From positions 1,618 to 65,617 of the forward strand of contig JACPCX010000178.1 of NCBI GenBank assembly GCA_016184305.1: a DNA stretch of 64,000 nucleotides. The letters run 5' to 3'. A program made the position numbers. This DNA comes from Candidatus Rokuibacteriota bacterium (lineage in GTDB: Bacteria; Methylomirabilota; Methylomirabilia; Rokubacteriales; CSP1-6). This document shows, piece after piece, positions 18,001-21,000 of this stretch (positions within the stretch are counted from its first letter, which is position 1; each line of letters begins with the position of its first letter).

Positions 18001-21000
18001 GGCACTGGGGGTGTACCTCCTCCTGCTGCTGTCCGCCCACGGGGGGACCCGGGACAACCTGACATACGCCCTGTCTCTCCTATCTCCCCGGCGATTCAGG
18101 GAGTTCATCGTGACGGGGCTCAGGCGAACCTGATATAGTGACGAGGTCAAGGGGAGGCGCCGCATGGGCTATCTGAGGACCAATTACCGCAAGGACGAGA
18201 CCCCCAGGCCAAAGCCGGCCGCCACCAAACCCAACCCCGGCCCAGCCTTCGGCACCCGCGACCCCGACTTCGAGAACCTGGCCCTCAAGAACATCGCCGG
18301 AAGCATCACCGTCTACCGGGTCACCGACGATTTCATCGTGGGCCTCACGAACGGCACCGACAGGCCGAGCGGCGGCTGAGGCGCCCTCGCCGGCGCCGGG
18401 GATGAAGGACTTCGTCGTCAGGGGGCTCTCCGGCTCGGACTTCCGCAAGCTCCAGAAGCGGAAGGAAGACGACGGCTTCGGCGGTTGCTCGTGGAAGGAG
18501 TGGATCGAGCACCTCGTGGTCGACGTGGCGCTCGAGGAGTCGCTCTCCGACCGCTTCCACCGCGCCACCCGGGAGAAGCTGTCCGACCTCTGGCTCGCCA
18601 ATTTCGCCCGGAACCTGGCGCCCATCATGGGGCCCGACGCCCGGGCGCTCGGCGACCTCATGCTGGACCTCCGGGTGCCCGCCACCCCGCCCGCGGGGCC
18701 GGCGCTGGTGATCGGCGGCGGCCCGAGTCTCAGGGAGCATCGCCACCTGGAGATGCTCGCCGAGTCGTGTCCCCCGGGCCTCATGCTCATCGCCACCGAC
18801 CGCATCCTGATCCCGCTGCTCAGGCTCGGCGTGATCCCCGACCTCGTCGTCTCCATCGACGGGGACCACGAGGTGATCGCCCGCTTCGTGGACGACCCCA
18901 TGGTGGACCAGCACGGCGCCAAGCTCCGCGTCGCCATGGCGAGCATGGGCGCCCCGCCGGTGGCCGAGCGATTCGCGCGGGCCGGGGCCACGCTCTACTG
19001 GTTCCACCCGCTCTTCGACGATCCCCGGCGCCAGGGGTCGCTGACCGCGCTCCAGCGCGGCATGACCCGCAACGCGCGCTGGCCGCAGGGGCTTCCCGCC
19101 GTCTCATGCGGGGGTCATGCGGGGGCCACGGGCTGGGTGCTGGCGCATGCGCTCCTCAGGCGGAGCCCCATCGGGCTCATCGGCCTGGACCTCGGCTACC
19201 CTGTGGGGTATCCCCTCGAGCGGACGCAGTGCTACCCCGTGATCTGCGAGCTGACCTCCGGCGATCCGGAGGCCGCGCGCGCCTACTTCACCGAGATCTA
19301 CAATCCCGACCTGGGCCAGCCGGCCCTGCTCGACGTCATGTTCGCCGAGTTCCGGCGCCACTTCCTCGAGATGCTCGAGCGGGTGCCGCCCTGGGTGCGC
19401 ACCTGCAACTGCACCGAGGGCGGATCGCTCTTCGGTCCGGGCATCACGACGCTGACGCTCGCGCGCTTCCTCGAGCAGGTGGCGAGCAAGGAGACGTCTG
19501 CATGAAGATCCTGTTCATCCACCCGCCGGTCAGGCTCGGCGATGTCCCCAAGCACATCCCCTACGGCATCGGCATCCTGGCGGCGGTGGCGGAGAGCCTC
19601 GGGCACCAGGTCGCCTTCCTCGACCTGAACGCGCTGCGAATCACCGGGAGCGCGGTCACGGAGGCGCTCGCCGAGGACCGCTTCGACGTGGTGGGGATCG
19701 GTGGGCTCTCCAGCCAGTACAAGTTCATCAAGCCGCTGCTGAGGCTCATCAAGGCCCAGCAGCCGCAGGCTCTCGTGCTGGCGGGGGGCGGGTTCCTCAC
19801 GAGCATGCCCGAGGAGATGATGGCGCTGTGCCCCGAGATCGACGTGGCGGTGGTGGGCGAGGGCGAGGCGACCCTGCCCGAGGTGCTCGACCACCTCGAG
19901 GACCACGACTGGTCCCGCGTCGAGGGCGTGATCTACCGGCGGCCCGACGGCAAGGCCGTCCGGACCCGGCCCCGGAAGCTCATCGCCAGCATGGACGACA
20001 TCCCCTACCCGGCCTACGATCTCATTCCGCTGGAGATCTACTTCGAGAACAGCGCGCTCATGTTCAGCCCGGAGTCGGCTGCCGCCACCCGGCGCATCGA
20101 CATCCTGATGGAGCGGGGCTGCCCGCGCATGTGCACCTTCTGCGAGCATGGCGGGATGTCGAAGTACGACCTGGAGCGGGTCTACGAGGGGAGCGACTTC
20201 AAGGAGGAGCCCATCTACCGCTTCAACTCCCCCGAGTACACGGTGGAGATGGTGCGCTCCCTGCGCTTCAAGTACGGCGTGGACTTCGTCTCGATCCTGG
20301 ACGAGAACATGACCTCCTACCGCCGGCGCGTCTTCGAGCTCTGCGACGCCTGGGAGCGGGCGGGGCTCGCGGGCATCGTCCGCTTCGGCTGCCTGGGAGA
20401 CGTGGGCGGCGTCACGCGGGACATGCTCAAGCGCCTCCGCGAGGTGGGCTGCTCCTACATCTCCTACGGCGGCGAGTCGGCCTCCAACATGATCCTCAAG
20501 GCCGTGAAGAAGAACACCACGGTCGAGCAGATGCAGCAGGCGCTGGAGTGGACGGTGCAGTCGGGCATCCGCGGGGTCATGACCTTCATGATGGGCTACC
20601 CGGACGAGACGCCGCAGACCATGTACGAGACCATGGACTTCTGGCGGCGCAACGGAATGATCGTCAAGCCGTTCCTCATCACCCCGTACCCCGGCACCGA
20701 GCTCTACGTGCAGTACAAGCGGAAGCTCCTCGACCAGTGGGGCGGCAGCCTCGATCGCTTCCTCCTGTCCCTGGACGACGCCACCGACATCTCCGTGAAC
20801 ATCTCGAAGCACTTCAACGACGTGGAGCTTCTGGGGCTCCAGCAGCTCATGTACTCGCAGGACTTCGACCGGCTGCGCCGCTTCGCCGCCGACAAGGGCA
20901 TGCCGATCGTCGAGATCCAGGCGGCGCCTGCACCGGTGGAGATCGTGGGGGCGGGGCGCTGAGCCCCGGGAACGAGCCCCGAGAGCCCCGCGCGGGGCGC

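Follow-up and report, generated by a model that had tools for sequence, protein, structure and literature searches.

What is a 71-residue protein for, when its gene lies immediately upstream of genes for a DUF115 (MptE-like) protein and a class B radical S-adenosylmethionine (SAM) enzyme? The question is raised by a 64,000-nucleotide stretch of contig JACPCX010000178.1 from a Candidatus Rokuibacteriota bacterium (hereafter, the window), which has a GC content of 70%. An earlier, sequence-only reading had singled out these three genes and proposed the small protein as a candidate acceptor or carrier for the nonulosonic acid made by the locus, with a different acceptor of the DUF115 protein as the alternative. 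Here, we find that the small open reading frame (ORF) belongs with the DUF115 gene and the B12-binding radical SAM gene to a single obligate cassette of three translationally coupled genes. This cassette is inserted co-directionally in operons for di-N-acyl nonulosonic acids of the legionaminic or pseudaminic type, usually together with a cytidylyltransferase of the cytidine monophosphate (CMP)-sugar type.

An obligate cassette in nonulosonic acid operons

For family discovery, 80 genome loci were fetched with an alignment of the DUF115 family, their six-frame ORFs were searched with a profile of the small protein, and the search was iterated. Two of these loci belong to close relatives, and the other 78, from many phyla, share 27 to 38% identity with the window DUF115 protein. 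The first iteration gave four weak matches (E = 0.03 to 0.1), all on the same strand as DUF115 and directly upstream of it, which share the motifs Y-L-K-G-N-[YF] and F-E-x-x-A-L-K-x-L-G-G-S-I. At convergence, one small ORF per locus was found in 75 of the 80 loci, always directly upstream of DUF115. Five loci had no match: two are truncated at the 5' end of DUF115, one is a Nitrosopumilus locus with a divergent copy, and two appear truly to lack the gene. Seen from DUF115, the small gene is directly upstream in 75 of 78 assessable genome loci, with its stop codon within about 60 nucleotides (nt) and often with a 4-nt ATGA overlap. The sequence-only reading had staked its proposal on conservation of this pairing in related genomes; the pairing is kept far beyond them. 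Gene starts in the fetched loci were derived from ORFs and motifs, not from annotation.

The third gene is just as constant, and an obligate radical SAM partner had no place in the model of the sequence-only reading. With the window included (81 loci), the radical SAM gene was found directly downstream of DUF115 in 80 loci, at a median offset of +1300 nt (interquartile range, 1224 to 1342). A reverse census started from the small protein alone, using a metagenome scan with a narrow alignment (A5; alignment A4 was too diverse for the scan), and yielded 80 loci with one small-gene copy each. DUF115 was the next gene in 64 of the 66 loci with enough downstream sequence, and the radical SAM gene followed in 38 of 38. 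The same order was present in all three long contigs picked from the protein search, and in locus L093 the three cassette genes and a cytidylyltransferase gene stand alone as a unit of four. In addition, the two DUF115 loci without the radical SAM gene (L091 and the viral L095) are also without the small gene, and neither the small gene nor the cassette radical SAM gene was present in any of eight DUF115-like loci on viral contigs. L095 (IMGVR_UViG_3300037264_009246, positions 2661 to 7972) is a predicted viral contig in which a DUF115 relative lies beside DegT, NeuB, dehydratase, cytidylyltransferase, and PglD-like genes, a nonulosonic acid cluster carried by a virus.

NeuB, NeuC, or a CTP_transf_3 cytidylyltransferase was detected within 6 kb of the cassette in 64 of the 81 loci, a census that was seeded by BLAST with the window genes and so under-counts divergent pathway genes; most of the other loci are contigs cut short. 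The cassette is co-directional with the biosynthesis operon and lies inside it, with a cytidylyltransferase as the commonest immediate neighbor. The type most often adjacent is that of cytidylyltransferase 2 of the window (Table 1); 49 of 81 loci have a homologue of it, which often immediately precedes the small gene or follows the radical SAM gene. On the contigs of 12 close homologues of the small protein, the order is fixed as flippase, small gene, MptE-like gene, B12 radical SAM gene, PglD, and NeuB, with a 4-nt overlap between the small gene and DUF115. A flippase gene before the small gene was found only in close Rokubacteria relatives (L002, L004, L006, L012, and L013).

The cassette hosts include Rokubacteria/Methylomirabilota, Nitrospira, Nitrospina, Nitrosomonadaceae, magnetospirilla (e.g., the cultivable Paramagnetospirillum caucaseum SO-1, L081) and other Proteobacteria, Myxococcota, Planctomycetes, Chloroflexota, Elusimicrobia, and Nitrosopumilus, at least a dozen phyla. 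The loci are mostly from metagenome-assembled genomes, and some taxon labels may reflect mis-binning (the 'Nitrosotalea' locus L049 resembles Rokubacteria loci). In the Nitrosopumilus sp. metagenome-assembled genome (L016, NZ_OZ253550.1, about positions 5760 to 5910), the divergent small ORF MKANFNIKKIEGEKRDDKEELESIIERSGVGSHMIFRSKNKDDEFFIDEI (MKANFNIKK...GVGSHMIF) is located upstream of an archaeal DUF115 gene, and its Asn and Gly-Ser are kept. At this locus, a radical SAM homologue stands upstream of DUF115, not downstream.

Two further observations concern particular groups of loci. In 23 loci of Rokubacteria/Methylomirabilota (e.g., L018, L006, and L065), a protein of about 212 amino acids (aa) with a winged-helix HTH_24 domain and a coenzyme A-binding-like domain is encoded directly upstream of the cassette, and it may be a dedicated cassette regulator. 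The contigs L007 (6992 to 12794), L008, and L009 to L011, with a GC content of 42 to 48% and many small ORFs without Pfam matches, encode DUF115 homologues at 36 to 41% identity (P0024, P0027, and P0029). On L007, a B12 radical SAM gene accompanies three DUF115 paralogues, and a 53-aa protein related to the small protein is encoded downstream of the first DUF115 gene and overlapping it. The host of such contigs could be a virus or an uncultured lineage.

The small protein and its two enzymes

The near-consensus ribosome-binding site and the genuine-gene codon bias that had been attributed to the small ORF were both recovered. The Shine-Dalgarno-like sequence AAGGGGAGG is placed 6 nt before the ATG, and the GC content by codon position is 0.54/0.53/0.89, with third-position values (GC3) of 0.91 to 0.94 in the neighboring genes. 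The gap from the flippase gene is 30 nt, and the gap to DUF115 is 22 nt, as had been read; in most other genomes, the small gene and DUF115 overlap instead. The 22-nt spacer (18380 to 18401, GGCGCCCTCGCCGGCGCCGGGG) holds the palindrome GGCGCC twice, and this pair could form a 6-bp hairpin just 5' of the DUF115 start codon. A Logan contig is identical to the window from the small ORF through to the acetyltransferase gene.

A word-indexed search gave 12 close homologues of 68 to 76 aa with 65 to 96% identity to the small ORF. In the conserved blocks, synonymous codon changes outnumbered nonsynonymous ones (14:5 versus L002, 13:4 versus L006, and 9:1 versus L013). On the strength of these homologues and this synonymous excess, the small ORF is a real gene under protein-level selection. 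The window is full of long spurious ORFs, which would suit the view that the small ORF is a chance frame in a 70% GC genome and that its conservation is that of a regulatory or untranslated leader of DUF115. However, this view does not accommodate the synonymous excess, the GC3 of 0.89 at an otherwise intergenic position, the retention of protein motifs, with linker indels, across genomes of 42 to 70% GC, or the fact that the gene was called by other pipelines 1,864 times. The chance-ORF explanation is effectively refuted.

The sequence-only reading had assigned the small protein to no recognizable family. This held for the curated libraries, since the window protein had no match in Pfam or NCBIfam and scans of 52 family members gave only noise. 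It did not hold beyond them, since the small ORF belongs to a large unannotated family. When 1.84 billion representatives were searched with a profile of the clade-only alignment (A1), the matches were its own cluster, three artifacts, and nothing else. Two of the artifacts, P0079 and P0080 (1095 and 363 aa), are near-identical tandem repeats matched through Pro-rich segments and resemble translated satellite DNA, not genes; the match to the third, P0081, is confined to a Pro-rich linker and the start of a repeat like a carbohydrate-binding module. The orphan status suggested by this search was overturned by the syntenic, iterative local search. A hidden Markov model of 188 family members was then free of circular training, because the window clade was left out of it, and it matched 1 of 905 six-frame window ORFs, namely, the small ORF (E = 3.5e-10). 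When the family alignment was searched against a collection of 5.8 billion proteins, at least 1,864 clusters were obtained at E <= 1e-3, of which the best 120 are 55 to 95 aa long (nearly all <80 aa), with no Pfam domain and no name. By these profile matches, the window protein is a divergent member of an unannotated family of 55- to 80-aa proteins. PP-binding, MbtH-like, PqqD/RRE-type, and FliS-type identities were excluded at Pfam/NCBIfam sensitivity for the 52 members.

Conservation was counted in 203 distinct sequences with a median length of 61 aa. Gly46 and Ser47 are invariant (203/203), Asn7 is present in 202, Phe36, Glu37, and Ala40 are each present in 198, and Trp59 is present in 187, while hydrophobic positions vary conservatively. 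The family consists of an N-terminal L-[KR]-x-N-[YF] motif containing Asn7, the segment F36-E37-x-x-A40-L41-x-x-[LI]-[GA]-G46-S47-I, and a variable tail. Between the N-terminal motif and the helix-G-G-S-strand motif lies a linker of about 15 to 35 residues, variable in length, often acidic, and compositionally biased. The residues after Ser47 (I-A-F-V) look strand-like, unlike the four-helix fold of phosphopantetheine-type carriers, in which the Ser begins helix II. In the clade of the 12 close homologues, the N terminus M-x-Y-L-R-T-N-Y-R and the core F-E-x-L-A-L-x-N-I-A-G-S-I-T-V-Y-R are invariant, and the Pro/Ala/Lys linker and the C-terminal tail are variable. The window clade is altered at seven or more conserved positions (Gly6 to Thr, Gly45 to Ala, Ala49 to Thr, Phe50 to Val, Val51 to Tyr, Lys53 to Val, and Trp59 to Val) and retains Asn7, Phe-Glu, Ala-Leu, and Gly-Ser. 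An AlphaFold2 (AF2) model of the small protein alone, from a 13-sequence alignment, had a predicted local distance difference test (pLDDT) score of 55 and a predicted template modeling (pTM) score of 0.15, with one helix at residues 34 to 42. A ThiS/MoaD-like reading of the C-terminal Gly-Gly of the window protein was discarded, as the Gly-Gly is not kept even in close relatives.

The description of the small protein as Thr/Ser-rich was not borne out. It has 8 Thr and 2 Ser in 71 residues (14%), with as many Pro as Thr, and its Thr residues are mostly clade-specific. Thus, the argument from Ser/Thr richness for an acceptor fails, and one absolutely conserved serine remains.

The DUF115 assignment, in contrast, was upheld by PF01973 (52.2 bits against a cut-off of 34.6, residues 98 to 267), which is carried by 65 of 66 DUF115 homologues. 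The window protein shares 96% identity with its counterpart in 'Candidatus Rokubacteria bacterium GWA2_70_23' (L012). Its AF2 model (pLDDT 89.9, pTM 0.83) has a fold in common with the solved PF01973 members 5mu5 and 8sd5. In a Foldseek search of the PDB, Maf 5mu5 ranked first (E = 9.7e-9, 286 columns), followed by the archaeal MptE 6-hydroxymethyl-7,8-dihydropterin pyrophosphokinase 8sd5 (E = 7.5e-5, 222 columns), and the list also included thiamine pyrophosphokinases. A sequence profile (alignment A2) against the PDB reversed this order, with 8sd5 at E = 7.6e-9 (profile positions 86 to 172) and 5mu5 at E = 2e-3. The motifs GxGPS and [ST]-[IV]-D-G (invariant Asp153) are common to the DUF115 family and 8sd5, and the C-terminal N-C-T-E-G-G region aligns with Maf only and is absent from MptE. 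Based on the structural match to Maf and this Maf-only region, the modeled protein is a Maf-type core without the flanking domains of Maf.

Maf enzymes use CMP-nonulosonate donors for O-glycosylation of Ser/Thr and consist of an N-terminal Rossmann-like domain, a central Maf_flag10 domain, and a C-terminal helical/tetratricopeptide repeat (TPR) acceptor-binding domain (PMC11339370). The window protein resembles the Maf proteins of Magnetospirillum magneticum (5mu5) and Clostridium botulinum in its PF01973 core, its legionaminic/pseudaminic gene context, and a CMP-sugar synthetase nearby, and by analogy its expected chemistry would be CMP-nonulosonate transfer to a Ser/Thr hydroxyl. It differs from the three-domain architecture of about 600 aa or more in that its 367 residues comprise a central domain, a helical N-terminal extension, and a short C-terminal helix. 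The family is about half the size of Maf (340 to 367 aa), has neither the Rossmann-like nor the helical/TPR domain, and is invariably accompanied by the small protein and a B12 radical SAM enzyme; the window locus is non-flagellar, and identity to 5mu5 is 14%. Nor does the protein correspond to the single-domain MptE of about 220 to 240 aa in a pterin context, given its length and the nonulosonic context in 64 of 81 loci. It is, therefore, a member of PF01973 and not of the flagellin Maf family in the strict sense.

Could the DUF115 protein instead be an MptE- or thiamine-pyrophosphokinase-like (pyro)phosphotransferase or nucleotidyltransferase, acting on a nonulosonate hydroxyl or on Ser47 and so preparing the substrate of the radical SAM enzyme? 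We consider this improbable. It draws on the better profile match to MptE than to Maf, on the shared GxGPS and [ST]-[IV]-D-G motifs, and on the thiamine pyrophosphokinases in the Foldseek list. Fom3, a class B radical SAM enzyme that needs a cytidylylated (CMP-tagged) substrate, is a precedent for nucleotide-tagged substrates. However, the best and longest structural match is Maf, the N-C-T-E-G-G motif is Maf-like and missing from MptE, and the adjacent CMP-sugar synthetases are the context of a CMP-nonulosonate user.

The helical N-terminal extension of the window DUF115 protein spans about 45 to 90 residues. Its residues 1 to 45 (18402 to 18540) are specific to the window subfamily and its 36 to 42% identical relatives and are not found in the shorter homologues P0041 to P0049 (A2); most genome loci match the window protein only from about residue 40 to 50 onward. 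The small proteins paired with this extended subfamily share the variant motifs L-R-T-N-Y and G-S-I-[TV]-[VY], a pairing which suggests that the small protein and DUF115 co-evolved. A ribbon-helix-helix in the first 45 residues was rejected, as AF2 shows helices only.

The radical SAM gene is joined to DUF115 by the ATGA overlap that had been reported, and its product carries PF02310 and PF04055. It is a class B enzyme by its N-terminal cobalamin-binding domain and its radical SAM core, in which CxxxCxxC is CPRMCTFC at residues 207 to 214 (20120 to 20143). No NCBIfam equivalog was reached (BchE, 144 bits versus 481; ApyD, 138 versus 750; rSAM_ocin_1, 87). The nearest solved relatives, all distant, are AprD4, TokK, and CysS, and there is weak homology to the methyl-coenzyme M reductase (MCR) glutamine C-methyltransferase family. 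The order of a B12-binding domain and a CxxxCxxC core is the same as in the class B radical SAM methyltransferases (TokK, CysS, Fom3, GenK, and the MCR glutamine C-methyltransferase), and the cassette enzyme differs from these in having no equivalog-level match. In the searchable literature, no class B member was found to be linked with a DUF115 enzyme or with operons for nonulosonic acids.

A small ORF followed by modifying enzymes also recalls the ribosomally synthesized and post-translationally modified peptides (RiPPs). By this account, the small protein would be a precursor peptide that the radical SAM enzyme C-methylates and DUF115 glycosylates, and the cell would export the resulting glycopeptide. 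The RiPP enzymes ApyD and rSAM_ocin_1 are among the families that score best against the radical SAM enzyme in NCBIfam, and about 10 loci (L094 included) have an MsbA-type ATP-binding cassette exporter, both of which would agree with this. However, the radical SAM matches are all far below the family cut-offs, and the whole functional sequence of the small protein, both motifs included, is conserved across phyla, with no division into a leader and a hypervariable core. Each locus has a single small-gene copy rather than several, no recurring protease or recognition-element protein was seen in the loci, and the cassette is embedded in primary surface-sugar operons. We regard a RiPP-like role as very unlikely.

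A possible covalent partner or non-covalent adaptor

For the role of the small protein, we favor, tentatively, that of a covalent acceptor or carrier modified at Ser47. In such a scheme, the cytidylyltransferase would activate the nonulosonic acid as a CMP ester, and the Maf-core DUF115 protein, without an acceptor-binding domain of its own, would move the sugar from CMP to a hydroxyl group. The radical SAM enzyme would tailor the sugar on the CMP-sugar or after transfer, most likely by C-methylation, which is the default chemistry of class B radical SAM enzymes. The small protein would act as a dedicated, roughly stoichiometric partner of both enzymes. Its Gly46-Ser47 ([LI]-[GA]-G-S-I) would enter the DUF115 active site, and Asn7 would serve either for docking or as a second site, modified by the radical SAM enzyme.

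Several lines of evidence argue for a covalent role. Gly-Ser is strictly invariant and Asn7 nearly so, whereas the hydrophobic positions vary conservatively. The linker is flexible and variable, and the AF2 model of the lone protein is of low confidence. The cassette stays the same between hosts whose surfaces differ greatly, in keeping with a self-contained unit of enzymes plus substrate. Finally, the presence of the small gene tracks that of the radical SAM gene, as both are missing from L091 and L095.

A further proposal, which we hold to be unlikely, is that the protein of about 60 aa is a new glycosyl carrier. The Maf core would load CMP-nonulosonate on Ser47, the radical SAM enzyme would C-methylate or rearrange the tethered sugar or modify Asn7, and the product would be passed on or would have a function of its own as a small glycoprotein. 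Known carriers, such as acyl and peptidyl carrier proteins (PCPs), LysW, and ThiS/MoaD, are of similar size, are encoded by genes coupled to those of their partner enzymes, and have an invariant small residue in a Gly-rich motif (LGGS here, LGGxS in PCPs); many cassette small proteins also have an acidic tail after Trp, like LysW. In contrast to these carriers, none of the 52 members scanned had a PP-binding (PF00550) or any other Pfam match (PF00550, none at E <= 1), and no phosphopantetheinyl transferase or ATP-grasp partner is present with the cassette. Since the C terminus of the small protein is variable, attachment there, as in LysW or ThiS, is unlikely.

A number of points weigh against a covalent role. 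The small protein has no export signal, so a glycosylated product would remain cytoplasmic. A carrier needs a release step, and no candidate release enzyme recurs in the loci. The invariant Gly-Ser and Gly-Asn could have a purely structural role, as turns in a mini-fold formed only on binding, and the low AF2 confidence is weak evidence, as the model rests on 13 sequences. Translational coupling suggests a 1:1 stoichiometry, which is no less apt for a subunit than for a substrate. What DUF115 transfers may be something other than a sugar, since the N-terminal half of DUF115 is closer by profile to MptE than to Maf. Moreover, a non-covalent, cis-encoded adaptor for a Maf protein without an acceptor-binding domain has been experimentally established in the form of GlfM (bioRxiv 10.1101/2023.12.03.569772).

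GlfM is an 89-aa soluble protein of the tripartite GlfM-Maf-2 flagellin glycosylation system (Shewanella oneidensis SO_3260), encoded beside maf-2; Maf-2 lacks the TPR domain and depends on GlfM for flagellin binding and glycosylation (bioRxiv 10.1101/2023.12.03.569772). The strictly conserved residues of GlfM number just four (F, R, D, and E, with the conserved Asp in the last helix), and it is predicted to be a four-helix bundle related to FliS/FliT that bridges to flagellin (bioRxiv 10.1101/2023.12.03.569772). The cassette protein is similar in that its gene lies beside one for a Maf-type enzyme without an acceptor-binding domain, within a pseudaminic/legionaminic cluster, and in that few of its residues are strictly conserved. 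It differs, in a comparison made by description only, in its length of 55 to 80 aa, its single helix, predicted at low confidence, its disordered linker, and its invariant Asn, Gly, and Ser, as well as in its occurrence in non-flagellar loci and archaea with an obligate radical SAM enzyme.

Nearly as likely as a covalent role is that of a non-covalent subunit or adaptor, which would sit on DUF115 or bridge DUF115 and the radical SAM enzyme, for acceptor recognition or in a tailoring-transfer complex; the true acceptor would be a glycan or a protein encoded elsewhere. Besides the GlfM-Maf-2 precedent, the core-only DUF115 protein (367 aa versus 632 to 666 aa for Maf 5mu5) speaks for this role, as do the gene overlap, with its roughly equimolar synthesis, the single copy of the small gene per locus, and the placement of the cassette in surface-glycan loci with a flippase and glycosyltransferases. 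An adaptor would also avoid a cytoplasmic glycosylated 6-kDa product or carrier without an obvious release step. However, an adaptor should diverge with its host-specific acceptor, yet the motifs are constant from Nitrospira to Planctomycetes and recognizable in Nitrosopumilus. Strictly invariant residues that are small and polar are atypical for interfaces, the sole AF2 model is one helix at low confidence and not a four-helix bundle, and the absence of the small gene where the radical SAM gene is absent (L091 and L095) is left unexplained.

The surrounding glycan locus and the meaning of the cassette

The remaining genes of the locus (Table 1) agree with its assignment to nonulosonic acid production. 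NeuB, a NeuC-type epimerase, NeuD/PglD, WbuX with HisH- and HisF-like proteins, and two PseF-like cytidylyltransferases are all encoded, from which the nonulosonic acid product proposed by the sequence-only reading follows. As judged from established knowledge of these enzyme families, this is a surface-glycan locus, and its product should be a legionaminic/pseudaminic-type di-N-acyl nonulosonic acid that probably bears an acetamidino group. Among the approximately 47 GC3-supported window ORFs scanned against Pfam, none is a flagellin or flagellar gene, in line with the earlier statement that no flagellin is encoded here.

Table 1. Genes and signals of the cassette and its surroundings (positions in the window)
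Feature	Position	Strand	Evidence or remark
Radical SAM/SPASM enzyme	8435-9472	-	
GT2 glycosyltransferase	7495-8430		Adjoins SPASM gene
Second class B radical SAM enzyme	9810-11507	-	B12-binding + Radical_SAM
559-aa strongly hydrophobic membrane protein	14820-16499	-	No Pfam/NCBIfam match; divergent from flippase
Wzx-type flippase (Polysacc_synt)	16469-18133	+	PF01943, PF13440
Shine-Dalgarno-like AAGGGGAGG	18149-18157	+	6-nt spacer to ATG of small ORF; read from sequence
Small protein, 71 aa	18164-18379	+	ATG 18164, stop 18377-18379; family HMM match, GC3
DUF115/MptE-like protein, 367 aa	18402-19505	+	PF01973, E = 7.9e-14
Class B (B12-binding) radical SAM enzyme, 486 aa	19502-20962	+	PF02310, residues 18-128; PF04055, residues 205-380
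NeuD/PglD-family sugar N-acetyltransferase	21001-21636	+	TIGR03570, 187 bits vs 160.8; PglD_N + Hexapep
NeuB-family nonulosonic acid synthase	21633-22658	+	PF03102, E = 4.9e-90, plus SAF
Gfo/Idh/MocA oxidoreductase	22655-23647	+	PF01408, PF02894
HisF-like protein (WbuZ position of sugar amidation module)	23805-24569	+	TIGR00735, 288.7 bits vs 294.55; WbuZ TIGR03572, 262.7 vs 299.7; both just below cut-off
HisH-like protein (WbuY position of sugar amidation module)	24566-25219	+	HisH TIGR01855, 184 bits
WbuX N-acetyl-sugar amidotransferase	25216-26415	+	TIGR03573, 347 bits vs 203
Cytidylyltransferase 1 (CTP_transf_3, PseF-like)	26388-27101	+	PF02348; PseF, 107 bits; start codon uncertain
380-aa ORF	27098-28240		No Pfam/NCBIfam match; 4-nt overlaps on both sides
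Cytidylyltransferase 2 (CTP_transf_3, PseF-like)	28237-28941	+	PF02348, E = 1.9e-23; PseF, 157 bits
NeuC-type hydrolysing UDP-GlcNAc 2-epimerase	30169-31341	-	TIGR03568, 430 bits vs 236; PF02350

The 380-aa ORF between the cytidylyltransferase genes has homologues in 3 of 81 loci and could be the missing nonulosonate transferase or release enzyme. The 559-aa membrane protein is kept in close relatives (547 aa in L002 to L005) and in 6 of 81 loci, and it may be a polymerase, a ligase, or an oligosaccharyltransferase-like enzyme. Extra radical SAM genes, like the two upstream in the window, also occur in the relatives L003 and L021, and the glycan is probably modified by several radical enzymes. 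Other upstream genes encode a dehydratase, HldE, and two DegT aminotransferases, and elsewhere in the window are genes for transporters, for an oxoacid:ferredoxin oxidoreductase set, and for a PMT_2 glycosyltransferase.

The enzyme families and the pathway context are known, and the cassette is a Maf-type transferase with a cis-encoded small partner. New relative to known Maf systems are the unrelated small-protein family, the obligate cobalamin radical SAM enzyme, and the non-flagellar setting. In the literature, no description was found that links DUF115/MptE-like proteins with radical SAM enzymes, nor one of the cassette or the small protein. As far as the searchable literature shows, this is the first tie of a cobalamin-dependent radical SAM enzyme to sialic-acid-like sugar chemistry. 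The covalent-carrier reading, if true, would be categorically new: it would bring the first carrier-protein logic into nucleotide-sugar metabolism and would allow recombinant proteins to be 'sialylated' site-specifically with a minimal pair of enzyme and tag. Should the small protein be an acceptor, its motif of about 25 residues and the 340-aa enzyme would make a compact glycoengineering tool, and if it is an adaptor, the GlfM principle would extend beyond flagella.

Nonulosonic acids are widespread on the surfaces of environmental microbes, and the genes that diversify and attach them are largely unknown outside a few pathogens. The cassette is a recurrent, strictly conserved, and uncharacterized part of nonulosonic acid operons, including those of nitrifiers (Nitrospira, Nitrospina, Nitrosomonadaceae, and Nitrosopumilus), and its small proteins make up a family, with at least 1,864 clusters, that lies outside all curated libraries.

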